Positions 1-9,206 of a stretch of DNA of 9,206 nucleotides are shown piece after piece. Within the stretch, counting starts at the first letter, position 1. Every line of letters begins with the position of its first letter. The notes under the pieces are model-generated. The model made no database searches. It was given only the letters and a program-made list of their open reading frames with translations, and was not told the DNA's origin. The stretch is taken from the IMG/VR virus record IMGVR_UViG_2534681940_000023, positions 1-9,206 of that record; one strand, given 5' to 3'. The DNA is from a virus (taxonomy: Duplodnaviria > Heunggongvirae > Uroviricota > Caudoviricetes). Position numbers and translations under genes: made by a program.

Positions 1-108
1 AGGACACGCCCCTGCATAAACAGGGGCATCAGCTCTGAACCTGGCCTGAACAATACGATCCCCATACGCGGGGCAATTTCAGGGGTCAGTAGTGCTCTCA
101 CGGTCACC

Positions 109-918
109 TCAATGAACGGTATCGAGCAGCTTTAACAGCTCAGGGAATCGGGATTCGAAGAAATGCGGCTGCGTCTCGCGCGGATTTGCGGGACTGGTGA
201 TGTTCTTGCCGAACATGCAGCCTTTCGCTGTCAGCGACCAGAATTTTTTGATGTTGTTAATCGCGGTACGGCTGTATCGTTCGCGCTGCTCGACGATCCC
301 CAGCTTCACCATCTGGTGATATGCCTGATTAGCTGTCAGGCGGATACCATACTGCTTCAGCAGTGCACTCAGTGACAGCGTGGGACGGCTTGAGCCATCA
401 GGCGCGTCAGCAGGAGCATCAATGGCATAGCGCGGTGCCAGATTCGGTAAGCCAACAGCCTCCTGGAGTTTCTGACAGGCACCAAGCACTGAAGAGTTAG
501 ACAGGTTTAACTCCCGGCGCATAAAGTCCAGCAGAATCACGCCAGCCTGCATCTTGTCAGCAGCCTGCCCGGATAATTTTTCCGGTGCGCTGGTTACCAT
601 ATCGAAAGTACGGATCACCTTCAGATGGAATGACGGGCTGATCCACATTGCATAGGCATACACCAGTTCCTTGCAGACATACGTTCCCCGTTCATTTCCC
701 CCATGAATCACACTCACCGGGTCAACACCCAAATTCTGGGTGTTGGTCAATTCATGAACAAGCTCAGCAGTCTGTTGGCTGGAAAGAAACTTTCCTGGCT
801 CCTTGGTTCTGGCATTTGCACCAGATGCTACTGCTGCGCGATGCAGATCGTTCAGGCTGTAACGCCCATAAGCATCACGACGAACTTCAATACCATCAAT
901 GACCATCAGATTATTCAT
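109..918 (-). CDS. KilA-N domain protein with antirepressor-like C-terminal half (269 aa)
   Basis: Track ORF 109..1020 begins at a TTG inside rusA, so I trimmed it to the ATG at 918-916, which follows GAGGAG (minus strand ...gatcaagaggagaaacgaagtATG). The N-terminal part (YSLNDLHRAA...GTYVCKELVYAYAMWISPSFHLKVIRTFD) fits the KilA-N pattern. The C-terminal half resembles phage antirepressor KilAC-type regions. Stop is TGA at 111-109. Confidence 0.8.
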   Translation of the reverse strand: MNNLMVIDGIEVRRDAYGRYSLNDLHRAAVASGANARTKEPGKFLSSQQTAELVHELTNTQNLGVDPVSVIHGGNERGTYVCKELVYAYAMWISPSFHLKVIRTFDMVTSAPEKLSGQAADKMQAGVILLDFMRRELNLSNSSVLGACQKLQEAVGLPNLAPRYAIDAPADAPDGSSRPTLSLSALLKQYGIRLTANQAYHQMVKLGIVEQRERYSRTAINNIKKFWSLTAKGCMFGKNITSPANPRETQPHFFESRFPELLKLLDTVH

Positions 919-937
919 ACTTCGTTTCTCCTCTTGA

Positions 938-1327
938 TCAGGCGGCTGCACCCGCCGTTTTCTCGTACTTACTGATAGTGATCTCGACCTTCCCTCCCGG
1001 GATAACCGGTCCCCACTCAACCAGCATTCTTTTCACCTGACTGTCGTCTTCCCACACACCCGCATGGGTCAGGGCGTCAAACAGCGCCTTGTTATAGTTG
1101 TCCAGATCGCGGATCCGGTTATCCGGCGGAAACAACACGATCTCCACTGAAGCAGGTGCCGACGTTGGTTTCGGCAGACGACGTAACTGCTCAACTATTG
1201 CTGCACACGCCGCGCTCTGGAATTTGCGCCCCGCCGCGCTTATCAGGCTCTTACCTGCAAACGCCCCTTTGTTGGGGTGTCGCCAGTACGTGTTCACGCT
1301 GGGCGGAAAAGGCAGGATCAGCTTCAT
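938..1327 (-). CDS. rusA: RusA-family Holliday junction resolvase (129 aa)
   Basis: MKLILPFPPSVNTYWRH...RIRDLDNYNKALFDALTHAGVWEDDSQV... matches the RusA layout (PPS-N-Y-R N-terminus, DLDN acidic motif, DD-Q-V). Its ATG overlaps the upstream stop as ATGA (1324-1327). The nin-region position next to a methylase is typical of lambdoid phages. Confidence 0.9.
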   Translation of the reverse strand: MKLILPFPPSVNTYWRHPNKGAFAGKSLISAAGRKFQSAACAAIVEQLRRLPKPTSAPASVEIVLFPPDNRIRDLDNYNKALFDALTHAGVWEDDSQVKRMLVEWGPVIPGGKVEITISKYEKTAGAAA

Positions 1328-1650
1328 ACTTTCAGGCCCCTCTCATGTAACCAGTGGGTTGCACGCAGCCTTGCGTTTTCCTCACCGGCAAGCAGTGCGC
1401 GGATAATCCCGACCGCCTCGCTGTCGTCGTCCTTCACCGCGGTATGAAGCGTTATCCCCCGGGCCACGCCACGCTTTATCGTGATGACGCCTTTTTTCTC
1501 CAGTGCGCGAAGATGCTCCACCGCTGCATTCACCGAACGGTATCCCAGCATGGTTGCCACCTCCTGATTGGTTGGCGGGAAGCCACGTTCTTTCTGATAA
1601 GAAATCAGCATATCCAACACCTGCTGCTGGCATTGAGTTAACGTCGTCAT
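1324..1650 (-). CDS. LexA N-terminal DNA-binding-domain-only protein (108 aa, no S24 peptidase domain)
   Basis: By-eye alignment to the E. coli LexA winged-helix domain: LexA [34 protein letters not shown] versus here PPTNQEVATMLGYRSVNAAVEHLRALEKKGVITI. The ORF ends about 35 residues later, so there is no Ala-Gly site and no Ser/Lys protease domain. ATGA overlaps occur at both ends (1647-1650 and 1324-1327). SD AGGGAG lies about 8 nt upstream. Confidence 0.8.
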   Translation of the reverse strand: MTTLTQCQQQVLDMLISYQKERGFPPTNQEVATMLGYRSVNAAVEHLRALEKKGVITIKRGVARGITLHTAVKDDDSEAVGIIRALLAGEENARLRATHWLHERGLKV

Positions 1651-2300
1651 GCCGCCATCTCCCTTACCAGTTTTTCTGCCTGCTGGCGAACCTGCGCCAG
1701 AAAGGCCTCACCACATGCCTCAAGTTCATCGCGCCCGATGTAGCTGATTGCCGGTCCCTTCCAGGTCTTGTCGAAAACAGCAATAGCACCAGCGAAGAAA
1801 GCGCCTGTCGGCACCTGCTTCTCATCCTTCGGGATAAACCAGGCAGGCAGTTCAAAACCAATACGCCCGCGAATAAAAGCAATATGATCTGCATCTTCCG
1901 GCCACCACACTTCGCTGGTGGCAGCTTTGATCAGGAAAACATAGCGCCCGCCTTTATCACGCATGGCACTGGCATGCTTCATGATGTAACGCATGCCGGT
2001 GATGTATTGCCCCTCATGCTGACTGGCGCGGCTGTATGGGGGATTACCAAAGGCAGCACCTTTAAGCTCCGCAAGACGTTCTGACCAGTCATGCGCCAGC
2101 GCGTTGTCTTCCGCCGTGTAATACGCGGCACATTTGGCGTTATCACCGTCAGTGAACAGATCCAGAACAAACGGACCAAACAAGGTGTTAATTCCCCAGA
2201 AAATGTTGTCCGGCGTGCGCCACTGATCGCCCACTTCCTTCAGTTCATGGGCTGGTTTGTTCCGCAGTTCTACCAGCGCCTGGCAATATTTATTACTCAT
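1647..2300 (-). CDS. Phage-type DNA N6-adenine methyltransferase (217 aa)
   Basis: It has the DQWRTP motif near the N-terminus and the catalytic FGNPPYS (NPPY) motif, as in the phage Dam methyltransferase family (YfdM-like). The start ATG at 2300 overlaps the upstream stop as TAATG. The stop overlaps the next start as ATGA. Confidence 0.85.
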   Translation of the reverse strand: MSNKYCQALVELRNKPAHELKEVGDQWRTPDNIFWGINTLFGPFVLDLFTDGDNAKCAAYYTAEDNALAHDWSERLAELKGAAFGNPPYSRASQHEGQYITGMRYIMKHASAMRDKGGRYVFLIKAATSEVWWPEDADHIAFIRGRIGFELPAWFIPKDEKQVPTGAFFAGAIAVFDKTWKGPAISYIGRDELEACGEAFLAQVRQQAEKLVREMAA

Positions 2301-2392
2301 TAAGCCCCCACGTAAAAAGCATCCGCAATGTCTCCGGAAGTACAGCCCGGATGGGCTTCAATGAATTTCTGAACGTCATTTAACAGACTCAT
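2300..2392 (-). CDS. 30-aa ORF (MSLLNDVQKFIEAHPGCTSGDIADAFYVGA), possibly the N-terminal fragment of a winged-helix protein
   Basis: It is below the ORF-track size cutoff and I found it by reading the minus strand. The ATG at 2392-2390 follows GGGGGTGATC and lies 2 nt after the replication-gene stop. Its TAA overlaps the methylase ATG (TAATG). The peptide resembles the first helices of small wHTH proteins but stops after 30 residues. Confidence 0.3.
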   Translation of the reverse strand: MSLLNDVQKFIEAHPGCTSGDIADAFYVGA

Positions 2393-2394
2393 GA

Positions 2395-3375
2395 TCACCC
2401 CCTGAATCCTGCCGGGATCTGGCTGTAGTCCACGTTGTCGTAACTGGCTTTGAAGTACGGGTCTTCACGTTTTTCTATGTGCGTGCTGACGGACGGCGAT
2501 AAGCGCAGGGAAAGCTCATCCCATTTTTCCCGCAACTTCGACGGGCTGAGCACGTTACGGCACCAGAACGGATCGCGGCTGACGCGGCTGTACATCTCGC
2601 AGATTTGTTTGTGAGTACGACCATCCTGCACACACATCAGGCGAATTTCGTTTGCCCATGCTGTCCAGTTCGGTTCTTTGGGACGAACCACCTCGCCGTC
2701 ACATTCGGCGGCCTGCTCGTACAGGGCGATGATTTTTTTCCAGAGCCACTGTGCGCAGGTCAAATCATCCTGCGTTCCCCACTGGCGCTTTTTAGGGCTG
2801 AATACAACCGCATCAGGATGGCGAGTTAAAAACTCCTGTTCAGCCGTTTGCGTGTCCGGTTGCGAAGCGTCCGGACGAGAAGAGGTTTTATTCTCTGTAG
2901 TAATCTCTGTTGTATTCTCTGTAAGATCGAAATTGGTTTTCCCTTCTCCGCGGCGAGGGGTTTCCCGTGTCCGCTGTGAAGGCTTTCCCTCCTCCGCGAA
3001 ATTGGGTTTTACAGTTTCCCGAAAACGGGTTTCCCCATTTCGGGAAAACTGATTGTTTTCATTGATAAGTTCATTAAGGCGCTCACAATCTATACGGTAG
3101 AACATTTTGTGCTCAAGACGCTTGTTGGTTTCAACCAAAATGCCTCTGGACACAAGATGCTTACGCGCTACAGCCTGTTGTTCAAATGTAAGTCCGGTTT
3201 CGTGTTGTATCTCTTCACGCGTTTTATGTACGCCTTCCGCTGCATGTGCTTTATCCTGCCAGTAAAAAATCTGACCAAAGAAAATAACAGCGTGCGGACT
3301 TCCCATGTATTTAACGAGCCCAGGGTAATAAGCAACCGGATGCCCAAAATCGAGCAGAAGATCAGACGGACGCAT
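2395..3375 (-). CDS. Replication initiator / replisome organizer, lambda O-like (YfdO-like C-terminus), 326 aa
   Basis: Track ORF starts at GTG 3381. The ATG at 3375-3373 has a better SD (GGGAGGTGGCT ATG). It has an N-terminal wHTH-like region, a low-complexity middle encoded by DNA iterons, and a conserved C-terminal region (WGTQDDLTCAQWLWKKI...PFWCRNVLSPSKLREKWDEL). Its position after the cII-like and Rha genes is as expected for a lambdoid O gene. Confidence 0.8.
   Translation of the reverse strand: MRPSDLLLDFGHPVAYYPGLVKYMGSPHAVIFFGQIFYWQDKAHAAEGVHKTREEIQHETGLTFEQQAVARKHLVSRGILVETNKRLEHKMFYRIDCERLNELINENNQFSRNGETRFRETVKPNFAEEGKPSQRTRETPRRGEGKTNFDLTENTTEITTENKTSSRPDASQPDTQTAEQEFLTRHPDAVVFSPKKRQWGTQDDLTCAQWLWKKIIALYEQAAECDGEVVRPKEPNWTAWANEIRLMCVQDGRTHKQICEMYSRVSRDPFWCRNVLSPSKLREKWDELSLRLSPSVSTHIEKREDPYFKASYDNVDYSQIPAGFRG
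2929..3050. repeat. Iteron array, putative phage origin of replication inside the O-like gene
   Basis: TTTCCC-centred units lie at 2938, 2961, 2984 (exactly 23 bp apart), 3015 and 3030, plus an inverted GGGAAA at 3042. Examples are GGTTTTCCCTTCTCCGCG, GGGTTTCCCGTGTCCGC, GGCTTTCCCTCCTCCGCG and TTTCCCGAAAACGGGTTTCCCCATTTCGGGAAAAC. The array is flanked at 2885-2925 by an AT-rich TCTCTGT x3 stretch. This mirrors lambda ori, which has iterons plus an AT-rich region within O. Confidence 0.55.
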
Positions 3376-3595
3376 AGCCACCTCCCAGACGCTTAAACAT
3401 TTTCCCGGACTGAAAAGCCACCAGCGGATAACTCAGGGTATGAGTACGCCCCTGAACCTGACAGACAACCTTCTGGCTTTCTGTGTTGACCAGACAAACC
3501 CGCAGAACGTGACCGTTGCTGGTGGTGAACCACTGCCCCACACGGGGGCAGTGGTTGTATCGGTGATACAGAGAATTCACAACACGACGAATCAT
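3362..3595 (-). CDS. Small phage protein, 77 aa, possibly DUF4222/SH3-like
   Basis: ATG at 3595 follows GGAGGTG and forms an ATGA overlap with the upstream ORF. The 3' end overlaps the O-like start by 14 nt. Its WF..G..LRV...Q.VV...G pattern resembles the 57-aa ORF at 5092-5265. Confidence 0.6.
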   Translation of the reverse strand: MIRRVVNSLYHRYNHCPRVGQWFTTSNGHVLRVCLVNTESQKVVCQVQGRTHTLSYPLVAFQSGKMFKRLGGGYASV

Positions 3596-3786
3596 GGACG
3601 CACCTCCGCCGTTGTGATGTATTTAACCGGGCTGCCTTTCATTGCGATGATTTCACACATCTCCGCTGCTTTACGTTCCGCTGTTTTCCTGGATTTATAG
3701 CGGCGGTGCCAAACAGACGTATCCGTGCGAACTGATACATCGTTTCTGTATTCCGTAGTGGAGATGATGATTTCGTAACTAATCAT
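3592..3786 (-). CDS. Hypothetical small phage protein, 64 aa
   Basis: ATG at 3786 follows a strong SD (AAGGAGGT, about 6 nt spacing). ATGA overlaps occur with Rha upstream (3783-3786) and the 77-aa ORF downstream (3592-3595). I recognise no family. Confidence 0.6.
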
Positions 3787-4346
3787 GGGCGTACCTCCTT
3801 GTCAGAACCATTCAGCCTGGAATCAACAAGTGCAGCACCAAAAACAGCATCACCTACACGGTCGTACAGTTTGCCAGCCAGCGGAGATTCAACAGCCTTA
3901 AGCATGGGATAAAGCTGGCTTCTCCAGATTTGATGGATTTCACGCAAATGCAGGTATACGCCTCTGGCGTTTTGTGCGACAGATGACATCTCAGCCGCAC
4001 CAGCTCCTGATAAGCTCCTCTCCATCTGGTTAAAGGCATTGATGTATGCCTCTTTGAACCGGGCGGCACGCTTGCCAGTGAAGCCCATAGCAAGGAATGC
4101 GAAGCCGTCGCGGGTGATTTGATAGCAGGGAAGTTTGCGAGTACCGCCGTTGGGCTGGCGTACCAAAATTGATGTCTCCGCAAAATTGCGGGCACAAAAC
4201 TCTGGAGAACAATCCAAAATGCGGATCTTTTTCAGAACATCGTCATGACGTTTAGAGAAGAAGTCAGCAACAGCCAAAGAAGATGTAACAGCCTGACCAT
4301 CAACGATGGCAATTTCAGGTTGAGAGAGAGTTGGGAAAGTAGTCAT
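3783..4346 (-). CDS. Rha-family phage regulatory protein (187 aa from the internal ATG)
   Basis: [41 protein letters not shown]...[35 protein letters not shown] is a typical Rha (pRha) domain, and Rha proteins start about 20 aa before the V-TS--VA--F-K-H--VL motif. The ATG at 4346-4344 has only a weak GGGG SD. The frame stays open upstream to 5444, so the true start is unresolved. Confidence 0.75.
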
Positions 4347-4638
4347 GGTGACAGCCCCTATGTTGAATTCAAAGAACTCACCACATGGGACGCCAATCAC
4401 AGAGGTGGTGAGACGTACAGGGTTGGCGTAACCGGTCAACATAGAACCCGGCGCATCTTGCGATGCCCCTGCACGCCCCACCATAATTTGGACGTAGCAA
4501 TGCTCATGATACGAAAAGACCGCATGAGCGCGGTTATGCTCTATATTGAATTCCAGGACGCCAATCCCGACACCCGCTTTATAAGGTGCCTGAACAGTGT
4601 AACGTCCCGAAATTGAGGAATCAATGTTTTGATAAAAT
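4347..4638 (-). other. Coding-like segment in frame with Rha but lacking its own canonical start
   Basis: Translation (...[88 protein letters not shown]) shows a strong G-at-codon-position-1 bias typical of real coding sequence. There is no ATG or SD between the ProQ-like stop (4639) and this segment. In-frame GTG codons at 4712 and 4709 have no SD. Confidence 0.3.
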
Positions 4639-5031
4639 TCAGCGATTAGACGCTTCTTTTCTACCCATATTAACTTTGAACAAGAGCTCCATACGACGAG
4701 TCCAGACACCACGTTCTTTGAGTTGTGCTCTGGCTTCTTCGCGCTCAGATACGGAAGTTCTGACAATACGATTTCCAGCCAGATTGCGGCGATATTCTCC
4801 AAACGCGACTGACTGAAGGTATGCAGCGGAGCTTTTGTACTGATAGATGGCTCTTCGAAGGCTGTTTTTATATTCCTTAGGTATATGTCCGAGATCGGCA
4901 AAAAGCTCATGAACGATATCGTGAACAAGCGGAACAACTTTGTATGGAATAACAAAGAAGCTTTCTGGATAGCGTTCAGCCAATACTTTAATGATTTCTT
5001 TATTTGCAAGATGCCTTGCTTTTCTTCCCAT
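4639..5031 (-). CDS. ProQ/FinO-domain RNA-binding protein (130 aa)
   Basis: ATG at 5031 has SD GGAGAA about 8 nt upstream. By-eye alignment to the E. coli ProQ N-terminal FinO-like domain: SSKEVIAFLAERFPHCF / [17 protein letters not shown]; LRSALRLYTSSWRYL / [15 protein letters not shown]; GATRVDLDGN / [10 protein letters not shown]; ARKQLEE / ARAQLKE. The gene is visibly more AT-rich than its neighbours. Confidence 0.8.
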
Positions 5032-5061
5032 ATACCATTCTCCATTACTCCAGATATCAGA

Positions 5062-5089
5062 ATGATATATCCAGGTTCAAGCAGTTCAA
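5062..5089 (-). promoter_or_regulatory. Candidate internal sigma70 promoter ahead of the ProQ/FinO-like gene
   Basis: The minus strand reads GCTTGAACTGCTTGAACC (tandem TTGAAC). The first TTGAAC (5089-5084) is followed by a 16-nt spacer and TATCAT (5067-5062). This lies just after the stop of the 57-aa ORF and about 30 nt before the ProQ-like ATG. It is a motif match only. Confidence 0.3.
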
Positions 5090-5091
5090 GC

Positions 5092-5265
5092 TTATGCTGG
5101 TGCTTCGCACTCAACAAAATCACGACGAAACAACCACAGCGGGCTGAAGCATTCATGCGGATAACCATCACGCAGGTAAATAACCCGCTGTGTTTCCGGT
5201 TCCCAACGAATGACTCTGACGGGCACTCCGTAGTGATCTTTGAACCAGCGGTTAACTTGTTGCAA
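5092..5265 (-). CDS. 57-aa TTG-initiated small protein, DUF4222-like ([57 protein letters not shown])
   Basis: It is absent from the ORF track because it is under 60 aa. TTG at 5265-5263 lies 8 nt after GAAGGAGA (revcomp of 5273-5280), and the frame is closed by a TGA just upstream. TAA is at 5094-5092. The V-YLRDGY---C--P--F---F pattern matches my recollection of the DUF4222 small phage protein family. It is in the same frame as the ProQ-like gene. Confidence 0.5.
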
Positions 5266-5444
5266 AGGACTGTCTCCTTCTGCCGGTTGAAATCACCCAC
5301 AGCCCACTCTGCAAATCTGTGGGTTACAATTTCCCTGTCACCTGGTACATTCACTGCATAGCAATACTCCACCTTCGCTTTTCCACCCGGTACAGGAAGC
5401 GCAATCAGTTGCGAGCGACGGTAGTGTGTTGTTAAACTGTTCAT
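5266..5444 (-). CDS. Start-proximal part of an ORF ([57 protein letters not shown]...); 3' end unresolved
   Basis: ATG at 5444-5442 follows GGAGAA and overlaps the CII-like stop as ATGA, so initiation is well supported. The first 60 or so codons look coding. There is no in-frame stop until 3783, so the end given here is only where a better-supported gene in another frame begins. Confidence 0.4.
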
Positions 5445-6082
5445 GCGTTAGTTTCTCCACAACCAGAAGCAATCGACGCCACGACGCCCGGAGCTGCACA
5501 CTCGCGGGCGTTACTCTTTTCCGGCGCACAAAAAACACGAAATAACAGTGTTAAATGCTCCTTCCACTTCGCCATTACTTGGTAGCTGTTCTCTTCGATT
5601 TGCTCACGCTCAGCCTGGTCAATAACTCCATCAGCAGTTGCCTTGCGTAAGTACTGGGAATGCTTGCCAATCCATTCTATTGACTCCATCAGCCGCTGAT
5701 TAATGTCACCATTGTCAATGTCATCAATGACCACCAGCGGCACAAACACCCCATTACTACGACGGGCTATTGCATCCGTTACATGCCTGGTACCACTGGC
5801 ATCCTGTAAAACCATGGCCCACTCAAGTGGAAAAATTTGATCCCCACCGCTACGCAGTCTGTTATGCAATTGATCTTTTGCTGGGGTGATATCATCAGAT
5901 TTATACAAACCAAGAATTTCTGCTGCTTCCTCATAGCCATGAGGTAAATCAGCAATCGTTCTTCGTATTGCTGCCACCAGCCATGCTGGTTGCTTATCAA
6001 CTTTCCATTCAGGTTCTTTACCCACGTTTAAGCCCTCATATCTGTGGTTTCTGTAAATCGATTTATCCATTAGATTTTTCAT
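5441..6082 (-). CDS. CII-like lysogeny regulator (phage 186 CII/CP76- or YdaT-type), about 213 aa
   Basis: It has the layout of CP76/YdaT-type CII analogues: an HTH-like region ([12 protein letters not shown]...), then ...[23 protein letters not shown]... and ...[28 protein letters not shown]. It lies immediately downstream of cro and overlaps it. The start is uncertain: ATG 6082 (MKNLMDKS), ATG 6070, or the track's GTG 6139. None has a strong SD. Confidence 0.7.
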
Positions 6083-6263
6083 AAAGCTCAGGTTTAAATG
6101 GCAACCGTCCGCAAGTTCTATATGCAGCCTCTGCTGCACGTCCTTTTGGAATTAACTGGCCAGGACGGTTTCGCCACTGATAAACGGCTTCAGTTGTTAT
6201 GCCGAAAAAAGCAGCAACTTTCTCAATGCTGCCGAAGTAGCTTTCGATATCGTCAGTCGTCAT
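6063..6263 (-). CDS. Cro/YdaS-type HTH regulator (66 aa)
   Basis: ATG at 6263 follows SD GGAGGG (revcomp of 6267-6272). The HTH IEKVAAFFGITTEAVYQWRNRPGQLIPKGRAAEAAYRTCGRL resembles YdaS/Cro family proteins. It is divergent from the repressor gene. Confidence 0.85.
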   Translation of the reverse strand: MTTDDIESYFGSIEKVAAFFGITTEAVYQWRNRPGQLIPKGRAAEAAYRTCGRLPFKPELYEKSNG

Positions 6264-6274
6264 ATGCCCTCCAA

Positions 6275-6339
6275 ACTAAGTTTTATTAGATGTTAATTAT
6301 CAATCTATCTTAGGTCAATAAAAACTAAGATTACTTAGT
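6275..6339. promoter_or_regulatory. OR-like operator cluster (three 16-bp sites)
   Basis: The sites are 6275-6290 ACTAAGTTTTATTAGA, 6299-6314 ATCAATCTATCTTAGG (weak left half) and 6324-6339 ACTAAGATTACTTAGT (perfect palindrome). Centre spacing is 24-25 bp, as in lambda OR1-3. The same ACTAAG-N4-NTTAGN motif recurs at 7016-7031 and 7052-7067. Confidence 0.6.
6290..6318 (-). promoter_or_regulatory. PR-like promoter for the cro operon
   Basis: The minus strand has TTGACC (6318-6313), a 17-nt spacer, and TAACAT (6295-6290), about 30 nt upstream of the cro ATG. The flanking operator sites overlap both the -35 and the -10/+1. Confidence 0.5.
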
Positions 6340-6360
6340 AATTAAAGAAATGGTGCTCCT

Positions 6361-6987
6361 ATGGAAACGGTTGGTCAGCGTATAAAAGCTCTGAGAAGAG
6401 TTACCAGAACGTCCCAGAAAGAATTGGGTAAATTTTGTGGAGTAAGTGACGTTGCTGTGGGGTACTGGGAGAAAGACATCAATGTCCCTGGTGGGGAAGC
6501 ACTTTCAAAATTAGCGAAGTTCTTCAATACGTCAATAGATTACATTCTTTATGGTGCGGAGTTTGAAGGCAAACTCGTCACAAACATGCGCAGAGTTCCT
6601 GTAATCTCGTGGGTTCAGGCTGGGCAGTTTACTGAGTGCAGGACAGCAGAAGTGTTTAGTGAAGTAGACAAGTGGGTAGATACATCATTAAAGATTGGTG
6701 ATAACTCATTTGCATTGGAGGTTAAAGGCGACTCCATGACTAACCCTAACGGCCTCCCAACAATACCAGAAGGCGCAACAGTGATTGTAGATCCTGATGC
6801 AGAACCCCGGCATGGAAAAATAGTCATCGCTAGACTTGATGGAACAAACGAAGCCACAGTAAAAAAATTAGTTATCGATGGCCCTCAAAAGTTTTTAGTG
6901 CCATTAAATCCCCGGTACCCCAACATTCCGATCAATGGTAATTGCCTCATCATTGGTGTAGTCAAAGGAGTTCAATACGAACTCTAG
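6361..6987 (+). CDS. CI-type prophage repressor, XRE HTH plus S24 (LexA-like) autopeptidase domain (208 aa)
   Basis: N-terminal HTH is QKELGKFCGVSDVAVGYWEKD. A cleavage-site-like VQAGQF is present. The catalytic Ser lies in KGDSMTNP and the Lys in ATVKKLV. It is divergent from cro, and a terminator follows directly. Confidence 0.9.
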   Translation: METVGQRIKALRRVTRTSQKELGKFCGVSDVAVGYWEKDINVPGGEALSKLAKFFNTSIDYILYGAEFEGKLVTNMRRVPVISWVQAGQFTECRTAEVFSEVDKWVDTSLKIGDNSFALEVKGDSMTNPNGLPTIPEGATVIVDPDAEPRHGKIVIARLDGTNEATVKKLVIDGPQKFLVPLNPRYPNIPINGNCLIIGVVKGVQYEL

Positions 6988-7005
6988 CCCCCCTTTTCTC
7001 TAACC

Positions 7006-7042
7006 AAAACACCGAACTAAGAAAAGTTTGGTGTTTTCTCTT
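7006..7042 (+). terminator. Intrinsic terminator after the repressor gene
   Basis: The stem is AAAACACCGAAC (7006-7017) paired with GTTTGGTGTTTT (7026-7037). That is 12 pairs including one G-U, with an 8-nt loop. The 3' arm ends in TTTT followed by CTCTT. It lies 19 nt after the cI stop. Confidence 0.6.
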
Positions 7043-7069
7043 GCCATCAAAACTAAGTTAAGTTAGATT
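7041..7069 (+). promoter_or_regulatory. PL-like promoter with embedded operator
   Basis: TTGCCA (7041-7046), a 17-nt spacer, and TAGATT (7064-7069). The operator-like ACTAAGTTAAGTTAGA (7052-7067) fills the spacer. A second site, ACTAAGAAAAGTTTGG (7016-7031), lies in the terminator loop and 3' arm. Confidence 0.45.
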
Positions 7070-7164
7070 TTATATCAAAGATAACGAACAGGCAGGACGC
7101 CCACGAAGTAGCCGACGGTGGCGTATGAATGACCGGATGATTCGCGCATGGCAGGAGAGTGAAT

Positions 7165-7533
7165 ATGGATGGCAGTATCGACAACCAACGAGATGCCTGG
7201 CTTGTGGTGATTGAAGCAGCAAAAACTGCATTAAGCCAAGTTGAAAGCAGTAACTACAGAACAGTTAAACAAATGGCTTTGGGCTCTATTATCTATGCCT
7301 TTGAAAGGCTGGACTTTGATTTTGAAGCAACGAGTATTCTGTCAGAACAACATGAAAAAATGAATAGAGAAGACGCCGCAGCCTATATCGGCGTAGAAGC
7401 GCAAACCTTAGCTAATTGGGCTAGCACAGGAAAAGTTCGAATACCTTTTTTAAAAATCGGTAGAAAGGTTATTTACCTAAAAAGTGATCTTGATGCCTAT
7501 CTTGCCTCATCGAAGGCAAATACCACCAAGTAG
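7165..7533 (+). CDS. First early-left gene: protein with C-terminal excisionase/MerR-type HTH (122 aa)
   Basis: Track start GTG 7159 is only 1 nt from AGGAG (7153-7157). The ATG at 7165 is 7 nt away, so I prefer it. The C-terminal REDAAAYIGVEAQTLANWASTGKVRIPFLKIGRKVIYLKSDLDAYL fits the excisionase-family HTH. I do not recognise the N-terminal 70 or so aa. Confidence 0.7.
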   Translation: MDGSIDNQRDAWLVVIEAAKTALSQVESSNYRTVKQMALGSIIYAFERLDFDFEATSILSEQHEKMNREDAAAYIGVEAQTLANWASTGKVRIPFLKIGRKVIYLKSDLDAYLASSKANTTK

Positions 7534-7741
7534 CTCACGTACCTACCACCTCGCCTGATGTGGCTAAAAGCAGGCACATAACAGCTAAGTATTTTCAACC
7601 AGAGAGAATCCTTAGCGTTGTGGTGAATGCGGCTCAGCGCACGCGGGTTAAGGTTGAGACTGACAGTCGACCTTCTGTGGATACCCACCCGCCTGGTGTG
7701 CAACCTTCGCCAGGCACCGGGAGGCACCCGGCACCACAACA

Positions 7742-7799
7742 GCCACTGCTTTGGCGGTACCAGTTTGTACACTTGCTTCCGGCTGGTACCGCTCTTTTT
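7742..7799 (+). ncRNA. DicF-like sRNA candidate (5' end approximate)
   Basis: The core TTTGGCGGTACCAGTTTGTAC (7750-7770) closely matches my recollection of K-12 DicF, TTTGGCGGTATCAGTTTTAC. It has a similar architecture, with the GGCGG arm opening a hairpin that ends in a U-tract. Like dicF in Qin, it sits in the repressor-controlled operon opposite cro. The 5' part differs from K-12 DicF. Confidence 0.45.
7753..7799 (+). terminator. Intrinsic terminator (3' end of the DicF-like RNA) inside the early-left operon
   Basis: GGCGGTACCAG (7753-7763) pairs with CTGGTACCGCT (7783-7793). That is 10 Watson-Crick pairs plus one G-U, with a 19-nt loop, followed by C and TTTTT (7795-7799). Confidence 0.6.
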
Positions 7800-7893
7800 A
7801 CAAAACAGAGAAGAGCATCACCGGACGACGGGCTCATAACCCAATCCACCCGGGCGGCTGCCACCGCAGGTGCTCTTCTCTGTTTTGTGGAGA
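7795..7893 (+). other. Long RNA hairpin: 17-bp perfect inverted repeat, extendable to about 25 pairs
   Basis: CAAAACAGAGAAGAGCA (7801-7817) is the exact reverse complement of TGCTCTTCTCTGTTTTG (7871-7887). G-U and A-U pairs extend it outward to 7795/7893 and inward to 7819/7869. The roughly 50-nt apical region can form small CCGG/CCGG, GGG/CCC and GCGG/CCGC helices. Confidence 0.6.
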
Positions 7894-7936
7894 AACCAAC
7901 CGACCTTGCAGGGTCGATATGATGAGGAGCAGCAAA

Positions 7937-8299
7937 ATGGCTAGCGAACGCAGTACTGATGTGCAGGCATTTATCGGGGAGCTGGACGGCGGCGTATTTG
8001 AAACCAAAATCGGCGCTGTTCTCAGTGAAGTCGCTTCAGGTGTGATGAACACGAAAACCAAAGGGAAGGTCTCGCTCAACCTGGAAATCGAACCGTTTGA
8101 TGAGAACCGTGTGAAAATAAAACACAAACTCTCATATGTTCGTCCGACTAACCGCGGGAAAATTTCCGAAGAAGACACCACCGAAACGCCGATGTATGTC
8201 AATCGCGGTGGTCGCCTGACTATTCTGCAGGAAGACCAGGGACAATTACTGACTCTTGCCGGTGAACCTGACGGAAAACTCCGCGCAGCAGGTCATTAA
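7937..8299 (+). CDS. yfdP: YfdP-like prophage protein (120 aa)
   Basis: Track ORF 7751..8299 is trimmed to the ATG at 7937, which lies 7 nt after GAGGAG (7924-7929). The upstream part of the track ORF runs through the hairpin region. The 120-aa product MASERSTDVQAFIGELDGG... matches the length of K-12 CPS-53 YfdP and, as far as I recall, its sequence. It is followed by a yfdQ-like gene as in K-12. The symbol is from memory. Confidence 0.75.
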   Translation: MASERSTDVQAFIGELDGGVFETKIGAVLSEVASGVMNTKTKGKVSLNLEIEPFDENRVKIKHKLSYVRPTNRGKISEEDTTETPMYVNRGGRLTILQEDQGQLLTLAGEPDGKLRAAGH

Positions 8300-8364
8300 T
8301 ATCGTTCTTAATTAACTGATTATTTATCTCATCACTGAATATCCTTATATAGTGAGGACTTATT

Positions 8365-9189
8365 ATGTCTCAGAACTTAGACGCAACCGCAATTAATCAA
8401 ATCCATGCCCTTATTTCTGCTCAGGGTGTTAATGAAATTATTAGTAAGATTGGTGCCGATGCTGTGGCATTGCCTGAGAATTTCCGCATTCATGATCTGG
8501 AAAAATTTAATTTAAATCGCTTCCGTTTCCGTGGTGCGCTTTCCACTGCCAGCATCGATGACTTTACCCGTTATTCTAAAGATCTTGCAGATGAAGGCAC
8601 CCGCTGCTTTATCGATGCCGATAATATGCGTGCCGTCAGTGTGCTTAACCTGGGTACTATTGATGAACCAGGTCACGCAGATAACACCGCCACTCTCAAA
8701 CTGAAAAAGACAGCACCGTTCTCTGCTCTGTTGTCTGTTAATGGCGAGCGTAACTCCCAAAAGTCACTGGCAGAATGGATTGAAGACTGGGCCGACTACC
8801 TTGTGGGCTTTGATGCTAATGGTGACGCCATTCAGGCAACCAAAGCGGCTGCGGCGATCCGTAAAATCACAATTGAAGCGAACCAGACCGCTGATTTTGA
8901 AGACAATGACTTCAGCGGCAAACGCTCCCTGATGGAGTCTGTCGAAGCGAAGACCAAAGACATTATGCCAGTGGCATTTGAATTTAAATGCGTTCCGTTT
9001 GAAGGCCTGAAAGAACGTCCGTTTAAATTACGCCTCAGCATTATCACTGGCGATCGTCCTGTACTGGTTCTGCGCATTATTCAGCTGGAAGCGGTGCAGG
9101 AAGAAATGGCTAACGAATTTCGTGATCTGCTTGTTGAGAAATTTAAAGACAGCAAAGTAGAAACCTTTATTGGTACTTTCACCGCCTGA
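8365..9189 (+). CDS. yfdQ: YfdQ-like DUF2303 prophage protein (274 aa)
   Basis: The ATG at 8365 follows GTGAGGA. The 274-aa product has the same length as K-12 YfdQ and is in the same gene order after yfdP. Codon usage is clean and no competing ORFs are present. The family assignment is from memory. Confidence 0.85.
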
Positions 9190-9206
9190 TTTCATTACTG
9201 CAAATG

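Follow-up and report, generated by a model that had tools for sequence, protein, structure and literature searches.

In the phage-plasmid P4, according to the summary of Forti et al. (1999) in PMC10111431, the transcript of an internal constitutive promoter is terminated through interactions of CI and seqA and processed to the CI RNA, and Kil is translated when transcription reads through. According to the same account, full-length Eta is made only from an upstream promoter, with its translation coupled to that of the upstream gene, and translation of eta prevents termination. Another example is Salmonella Gifsy-1, in which the leader frame orf45 is translated and expression of the antirepressor downstream requires that translation (PMC4825925; Hershko-Shalev et al., 2016). 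That CI and seqA, within genes of the "Bro network", are picked up by the C4 and isrK models has been pointed out before (PMC10111431). Here we describe an arrangement of this kind in a stretch of 9,206 nucleotides from a virus of the Caudoviricetes (IMG/VR record IMGVR_UViG_2534681940_000023, positions 1 to 9,206), hereafter the window, in which all coordinates are counted unless another sequence is named. The segment under study, 4638..4347 on the minus strand, lies between the stop of a ProQ-like gene and the start of a Rha-family gene, and an earlier reading of the letters, here called the sequence-only reading, had described it as a coding-like stretch that lacks a start. Most likely, the segment serves as leader to an RNA immunity cassette of the P4/P1 type, by which the Rha antirepressor is controlled; it encodes RNA and can also be translated.

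The cassette and the frames that cross it comprise the following features.

4596..4624, minus strand: predicted internal promoter, equivalent to PisrK and to P4 PLE, assigned by homology (-35 TTGATT at 4624..4619, 17-nucleotide spacer, -10 TACACT at 4601..4596)
4513..4589, minus strand: IsrK / P4 seqA-type small RNA (Rfam RF01394, full-length model)
4556..4565, minus strand: a1 box ATTGGCGTCC, inside IsrK, with a core TTGGCGU complementary to a' of C4
4538..4549, minus strand: b1 box TCAATATAGAGC, forming 12 base pairs with b' of C4, 2 G-U pairs included
4513..4534, minus strand: intrinsic terminator of IsrK, the 3' hairpin of the Rfam isrK model, with the hairpin at 4534..4519 (ACCGCGCTCATGCGGT) and the T-run at 4518..4513 (CTTTTC after the hairpin)
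4401..4488, minus strand: C4 / P4 CI / STnc1160-type antisense RNA (Rfam RF01695, model positions 1-87 of 87)
4482..4484, minus strand: AUG at the 5' end of C4, in frame with Rha and 46 codons upstream of it, identified by homology to the first AUG of Gifsy-1 orf45
4436..4445, minus strand: b' specificity loop of C4, UCUAUGUUGA, complementary to b1 and b2
4423..4429, minus strand: a' single-stranded segment of C4, ACGCCAA, forming 7 base pairs with a1 and 7 with a2
4388..4397, minus strand: a2 box ATTGGCGTCC, target of a' and the same 10-mer as a1
4355..4366, minus strand: b2 box TCAACATAGGGG, target of b' in a possible duplex of 11 base pairs, covering the Rha Shine-Dalgarno sequence
3783..4346, minus strand: nested gene for a Rha-family regulator/antirepressor of 187 amino acids (Pfam Phage_pRha, 95 bits)
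3783..5444, minus strand: long open frame (553 codons), the counterpart of P4 eta, recognised by stop counts and by the same feature in relatives with many upstream contexts
5441..5444, minus strand: ATGA, shared by the start of the long frame (ATG, 5444..5442) and the stop of a CII-like gene (TGA, 5443..5441)

Direct computation supports the assignment of both RNAs and of their structures, the complementarity among their boxes, which is three-way and co-varies, the conservation of the open frame, of a 138-nucleotide spacing and of the ATGA, and the identity of layout with P4. In a Rfam scan of the window, with hits judged by the curated gathering scores, isrK scored 54.1 bits (gathering score 50, E-value 1e-9) and C4 80.1 bits (gathering score 45, E-value 6e-15); a weak c4-a1b1 match overlaps isrK. 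From its 5' end, IsrK consists of one hairpin, another whose loop carries a1, the single-stranded b1 and the intrinsic terminator. These two RNA genes and their target boxes are the main content of the segment and had been missed by the sequence-only reading. The hairpin with T-run that it had seen at 4534..4513 is indeed there; what had been taken for a possible terminator of the ProQ-like gene, and for an argument against coding, is the IsrK/seqA terminator, which may also stop transcripts from the ProQ promoter.

The structure of C4 was examined in 21 diverse C4 sequences, P4 CI and Gifsy-1 among them, with the Rfam structure slid along the sequences as a control. In the proper register 99.8% of the cells are paired, compared to 33-50% in the slid controls, and compensatory changes on both sides occur in 13 of the 27 pairs. 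C4 and isrK are intact RNA families. By analogy with the annotated mature P1 c4 RNA, mature C4 is predicted to span about 4482..4404, and its processing from the transcript of its own target and the repression of the downstream gene are predicted by homology. The putative internal promoter lies at a position homologous to the TTGACA-17-TATATT of Gifsy-1, transcription is predicted to start near G4589/4590, and the mapped Gifsy-1 start places A107 of orf45 on the C4 AUG.

Target boxes for C4 flank it on both sides. The consensus TCAAYATAGRG is common to b1 (4549..4538) and b2 (4366..4355), and the Rha Shine-Dalgarno sequence, AGGGG at 4359..4355, lies inside b2 and ends 8 nucleotides before the ATG at 4346. 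Over 16 loop types, the b'/b2 duplex has a mean of 11.8 base pairs within its own type versus 6.8 across types, and the b'/b1 duplex, in which b1 follows the changes in b', has 8.1 versus 5.3. This three-way co-variation of b', b1 and b2 is the signature of immunity-specificity types. In the minimum-energy fold of the leader (4590..4335, z = -4.9) a1b1 is paired with b'a', which is the translationally inactive structure A that was demonstrated experimentally for Gifsy-1 isrK-orf45 (PMC4825925).

A C4-core pattern scan of viral contigs gave 119 loci. The viral contigs hold at least 16 C4 specificity types, followed by genes for Rha-domain proteins, short Kil-like proteins and others. These findings point to a portable RNA cassette that moves between phages, satellites and plasmids.

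The second line of evidence is the reading frame. The frame of the Rha ATG at 4346, which is +1 relative to that of the ProQ-like gene, is free of stops over the 97 codons of 4638..4347 (0, 4 and 6 stops in the three frames), and its codons carry G at a frequency of 0.38 in the first position versus 0.18 and 0.22 in the second and third; on the stop-free stretch, its frame and its codon bias the sequence-only reading was right. The frame stays open beyond the ProQ stop, reaching 366 codons 5' of the Rha ATG up to the ATG at 5444 (0, 26 and 12 stops by frame over 5444..4347), which is preceded by a GGAG 10 nucleotides upstream (5458..5455). On its way it passes through a DUF4222 gene and the ProQ-like gene, both read in another frame, and then through the internal promoter, IsrK, C4 and Rha. 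Translation of this long frame is inferred. Within the segment the Rha frame contains two ATGs, at 4484 and 4442. The earlier statement that no start with a Shine-Dalgarno sequence exists here is right in that neither ATG has one, and it overlooked that the ATG at 4484 is homologous to the mapped AUG of orf45. Its proposal of an N-terminal extension of Rha comes closest to the evidence, given the open frame and the eta/kil layout of P4; the likely starts are 5444 and 4484, not the GTGs at 4712 or 4709 that had been named.

The same openness is found in relatives, for which spacing and stops were counted in 56 unique variants and stop contexts in 78 enterobacterial leaders. The distance from the C4 AUG to the downstream start is 138 nucleotides, in frame, in 50 of the 56 variants. 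Between the start of IsrK and the C4 AUG, stops number 3, 50 and 101 by frame, and the Rha frame is spared even as this spacer differs among variants by lengths that are not multiples of three. From the C4 AUG to the downstream start the counts are 8, 55 and 120, and all eight Rha-frame stops fall in four non-enterobacterial or Gifsy-type variants. Distinct stop-triplet contexts in the enterobacterial leaders number 2, 57 and 80. The relatives' frame extends openly for 160 to 2100 nucleotides upstream, and its first in-frame ATG is typically joined in an ATGA to the TGA that ends a sizeable open reading frame (ORF) further 5', often after GGAGG; besides the window, this overlap occurs in at least 10 unrelated upstream contexts. 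The Rha start and its Shine-Dalgarno sequence are kept as well. Judged from these comparisons, the openness of the Rha frame exceeds chance and selection appears to keep it open in relatives.

On this basis a mechanism can be proposed. In a lysogen, transcripts from the internal promoter at 4624..4596 would mostly end at the IsrK/seqA terminator and yield the short IsrK RNA, and those that read through would be processed to the stable C4/CI RNA. The a' and b' segments of C4, which are complementary to a2 and b2, would pair with them, cover the Rha Shine-Dalgarno sequence and keep the 187-amino-acid Rha switched off; the untranslated RNA would then probably be terminated early, as in P1 and P4. 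The a1 and b1 boxes of IsrK would act as decoys in cis, pairing with the C4 part of a read-through RNA to give the inactive fold. In trans, IsrK would titrate C4 and open the leader, as in Gifsy-1, so that ribosomes could start at AUG 4484 and run into Rha. Since the mature 5' end of P1 c4 falls inside this AUG, C4 maturation and leader translation should be mutually exclusive for each molecule. Upon induction, transcripts of the early operon with its Cro-like and CII-like genes would let ribosomes enter at the ATGA of 5444. Ribosomes crossing IsrK, C4 and a2b2 would prevent folding, C4 pairing and termination, and immunity would be overridden as by P4 eta; for the stretch that crosses DUF4222 and ProQ this bypass is uncertain. 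Prevention of immunity-specific termination by translation of the long frame is known for P4 only, and for the window it is a prediction from that case.

Several points weigh against this reading. AUG 4484 is among the ATGs that lack a Shine-Dalgarno sequence. Entry at 5444 means that two genuine genes are crossed out of frame and that a 553-amino-acid product with an odd-looking N-terminus is made; the upstream part of the long frame may be open by chance, or the true entry point may lie elsewhere. The 138-nucleotide spacing is also found in two non-enterobacterial sequences, one of them with stops in the Rha frame, so it may mirror RNA architecture and not the reading frame. The stop counts are not independent events, because the relatives share phylogeny. 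A generic promoter scanner gave the internal promoter at 4624..4596 8 of 12 matches and did not call it, so that its assignment rests on homology to Gifsy-1 and P4. What is proposed for the window about the activity of the promoter, about RNA processing, repression and termination and about ribosomes moving along the long frame is carried over from P1, P4 and Gifsy-1.

A more far-reaching version of the leader reading sees in lambdoid prophages a stop-free frame kept as a ribosome conduit of more than 1 kilobase, coupled at its start to the CII-like gene, running out of frame across DUF4222 and the inserted ProQ/FinO gene and then through the immunity RNAs; early-operon translation itself would override C4 immunity, whatever its product. 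It adds the FinO-domain protein as a dedicated chaperone of the pairings of C4, IsrK and their targets. This combination is doubtful.

According to a purely non-coding alternative, the leader holds only IsrK and C4, Rha starts at ATG 4346 only, and the frame is open only as a by-product, arising passively from the conservation of RNA sequence and from annotation habit. The RNA genes account fully for the nucleotide conservation, the variable sites of the leader are spread 21/25/20 over the codon positions with no excess at the third, the in-frame ATGs have no Shine-Dalgarno sequence, and P1 and Gifsy-1 function without a long open frame. The absent third-position excess speaks against a functional peptide and not against translation, and the leader nucleotides appear by this pattern to be conserved for RNA reasons, the peptide carrying no sign of selection. 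What a passive by-product leaves aside is that exactly the Rha frame is spared stops in spacers that differ by non-multiples of three, that an ATGA start with a Shine-Dalgarno sequence sits on the stop of the upstream gene in many unrelated contexts, and that translation is experimental for orf45 in Gifsy-1 (PMC4825925) and is reported for eta in P4 in the work cited by the relevant part of PMC10111431. This alternative is unlikely. The P1 and Gifsy-1 cases fit the model of a translatable leader: in Gifsy-1 a TGA just before the orf45 AUG leaves no long upstream frame, and P1, which lacks a co-directional gene upstream and whose b' loop contains an in-frame TAA, has no eta-like frame.

It could also be held that the segment encodes a genuine Ash protein domain, that a long Rha isoform has its own biochemical function and that the RNA matches are secondary. 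The translated segment does match Pfam PF10554 Phage_ASH ("Ash protein family") at 41-44 bits, over the threshold of 26, public annotations are long (287 amino acids in strain GB089, 383 in phage mEp460), and the first codon positions are rich in G. The match, 4601..4317, coincides base for base with the promoter, IsrK, C4 and a2b2. The peptide varies wherever the RNA permits, and changes in the helices are compensatory, not synonymous. The supposed domain is fused to unrelated partners, Rha here and the short Kil-like proteins in P4 and its relatives, and in Gifsy-1 it is out of frame with the ORF6N antirepressor. P4 Eta matches the whole Phage_ASH profile at 82 bits, and the segment corresponds to the N-terminal part of Eta. 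Since both match, the "Ash family" corresponds to the eta-frame reading of the immunity RNA region; it is best read as a conceptual, possibly real, translation of that region and not as an independent domain. A separate Ash domain is a very improbable explanation.

The sequence-only reading had also suggested a C-terminal domain of the ProQ-like protein, either a former one or one reached by frameshifting, and a decayed gene; both are effectively refuted. The segment does adjoin the ProQ-like stop in the +1 frame, and full-length ProQ proteins have a C-terminal domain that the 130-amino-acid protein lacks. The sole Pfam match of the translated segment is nevertheless Phage_ASH, with no match to a ProQ C-terminal domain. 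In most relatives the start of the module is at about 4625-4631, many E. coli matches set in after the ProQ stop, and the module is widespread without ProQ, a gene that few E. coli genomes carry, P4 and phage mEp460 being among the cases. Decay is rejected because the RNA families are intact and co-vary.

Two neighbouring genes lie inside the long frame.

4639..5031, minus strand: ProQ/FinO-domain gene of 130 amino acids (Pfam ProQ, 51.7 bits), with its own Shine-Dalgarno sequence and in a different frame from Rha
5092..5265, minus strand: DUF4222 gene of 57 amino acids (Pfam, 63 bits), lying entirely within the long frame but using a different reading frame

The ProQ-like gene sits between DUF4222 and the IsrK promoter and has a promoter-like site of its own at 5089..5062 on the minus strand. 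Of 5426 complete E. coli genomes, 14 carry it, in copies of about 97% identity, each of them immediately 5' of an IsrK/C4 module. One search for relatives in other contexts gave 3 near-identical loci and another gave one cluster at 97% identity, all from this lineage. The gene is a rare insertion that provides context and lies outside the conserved module. Across the insertion the Rha frame has 0 stops in 131 codons versus 10 in the remaining non-coding frame. That a putative RNA chaperone should be encoded beside an antisense-RNA switch is suggestive.

For DUF4222, 9 of 14 variable sites fall at its own third codon positions, a substitution pattern that marks it as a real gene. Where no C4 module follows DUF4222, most copies of the gene have stops in the alternate frame, through one TAG that is common to a single clade. 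Between the CII-like stop and the DUF4222 start, 5266-5444 on the minus strand (59 codons), no other obvious gene was seen.

Further upstream lies a lambdoid immunity region with a LexA/S24-type CI repressor (6361-6987, plus strand), divergent from a Cro-like gene (6063-6263, minus strand) and a CII (CP76)-like gene (5441-6139, minus strand; domain PF06892). The real start of the CII-like gene is probably further downstream, because the listed GTG start overlaps the Cro-like ORF by about 77 nucleotides. Among the genes on the CI-like repressor side, a sub-threshold Rfam match to the STnc100 small RNA lies at 7599-7801 on the plus strand (36.3 bits versus a gathering score of 47, E-value 4e-5). 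Downstream of Rha, the early ORFs 109-1020, 938-1327, 1324-1650 and 1647-2300, all on the minus strand, were named by eye from the sequence with no domain search; we take the early genes to include a second Bro/KilA-N-like antirepressor-type protein (an ORF of 303 amino acids), RusA, a small protein that looks like the DNA-binding domain of LexA, and an N6-adenine methyltransferase of phage type.

Public records treat the region unevenly. In E. coli GB089 (L001 2655-3518) it is part of a 287-amino-acid "Rha family" protein with an ATC start, in phage mEp460 (L002 1679-2830) a 383-amino-acid Rha engulfs DUF4222, and other plasmid and chromosome records carry an "ash family protein" or no annotation. 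The IsrK and C4 RNAs are unannotated in every lambdoid or E. coli record examined, and c4 is annotated only in the P1 record. DNA matching the region is present in about a quarter of the complete E. coli genomes, and many Stx-converting phages have it too. The region probably decides the timing of antirepressor production and would thereby affect both the induction of prophages and the cross-talk among them. To judge from the comparative data, the bypass of RNA immunity by "nested genes" described for P4 appears to be widespread in lambdoid phages and not confined to P4, which makes it directly testable in well-studied E. coli phages.

The closest known system is P4, where the same Rfam families match at 8692..8615 (isrK/seqA) and 8507..8420 (C4/CI) of the P4 sequence. 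P4 eta (199 amino acids) starts at an ATGA, 8767..8764, on the stop of ORF88, an alpA homologue, and kil (65 amino acids) is nested in the eta frame 46 codons after the C4 AUG. The window shares with P4 the order of parts, with isrK as seqA and C4 as CI, the ATGA-started long frame and the 46-codon distance; the predicted internal promoter would be a further common part. In both, a single frame that opens 5' of the internal promoter position crosses seqA, CI and seqC without a stop and continues into the nested gene. The nested gene itself differs: in place of the 65-amino-acid Kil there is a 187-amino-acid protein with a Phage_pRha domain, which is not a Kil homologue, so that the layout is shared and the gene is not orthologous. 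Upstream, a CII-like gene that belongs to a lambdoid early operon stands where P4 has the alpA homologue; the long frame far exceeds that of P4 in length and covers two further genes, and the b' specificity loop is not the same.

The isrK-orf45-anrP region of Gifsy-1, which includes STnc1160, resembles the window in an IsrK with its terminator, a read-through mRNA and an antirepressor-type gene downstream. The leader AUG lies inside the C4-type RNA in both, about 106 nucleotides from G4589 here and at A107 in Gifsy-1 (L122 1505), and the middle part of IsrK pairs over a long range with the 3' part of the leader. In Gifsy-1, orf45 spans 134 nucleotides to anrP, ends in an AUGA overlap and is linked to it by termination-reinitiation coupling, whereas in the window no leader stop overlaps the downstream start and the leader, 138 nucleotides long and in frame, is fused to Rha. 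AnrP carries an ORF6N domain and not a Rha domain.

In the immI operon of P1 and P7 (annotation of NC_005856), C4 is likewise flanked by a1b1 and a2b2, in the order a1, b1, c4, a2, b2, icd; b2 covers the ribosome-binding site of the gene that comes next, and c4 is co-transcribed with its target. The spacing there is 129 nucleotides, the targets are icd and ant and not Rha, and the promoters are under C1 operators. Rha in the window occupies the position of P4 kil, P1 icd and Gifsy-1 anrP. All parts belong to described families, P1 c4, P4 CI/seqA/eta/kil and Gifsy-1 IsrK, in a known arrangement; what is new is a Rha-domain nested gene within a lambdoid early operon, and a modest new angle is given by how widely lambdoid phages carry the stop-free frame with its ATGA coupling and by its passage through two genes here.

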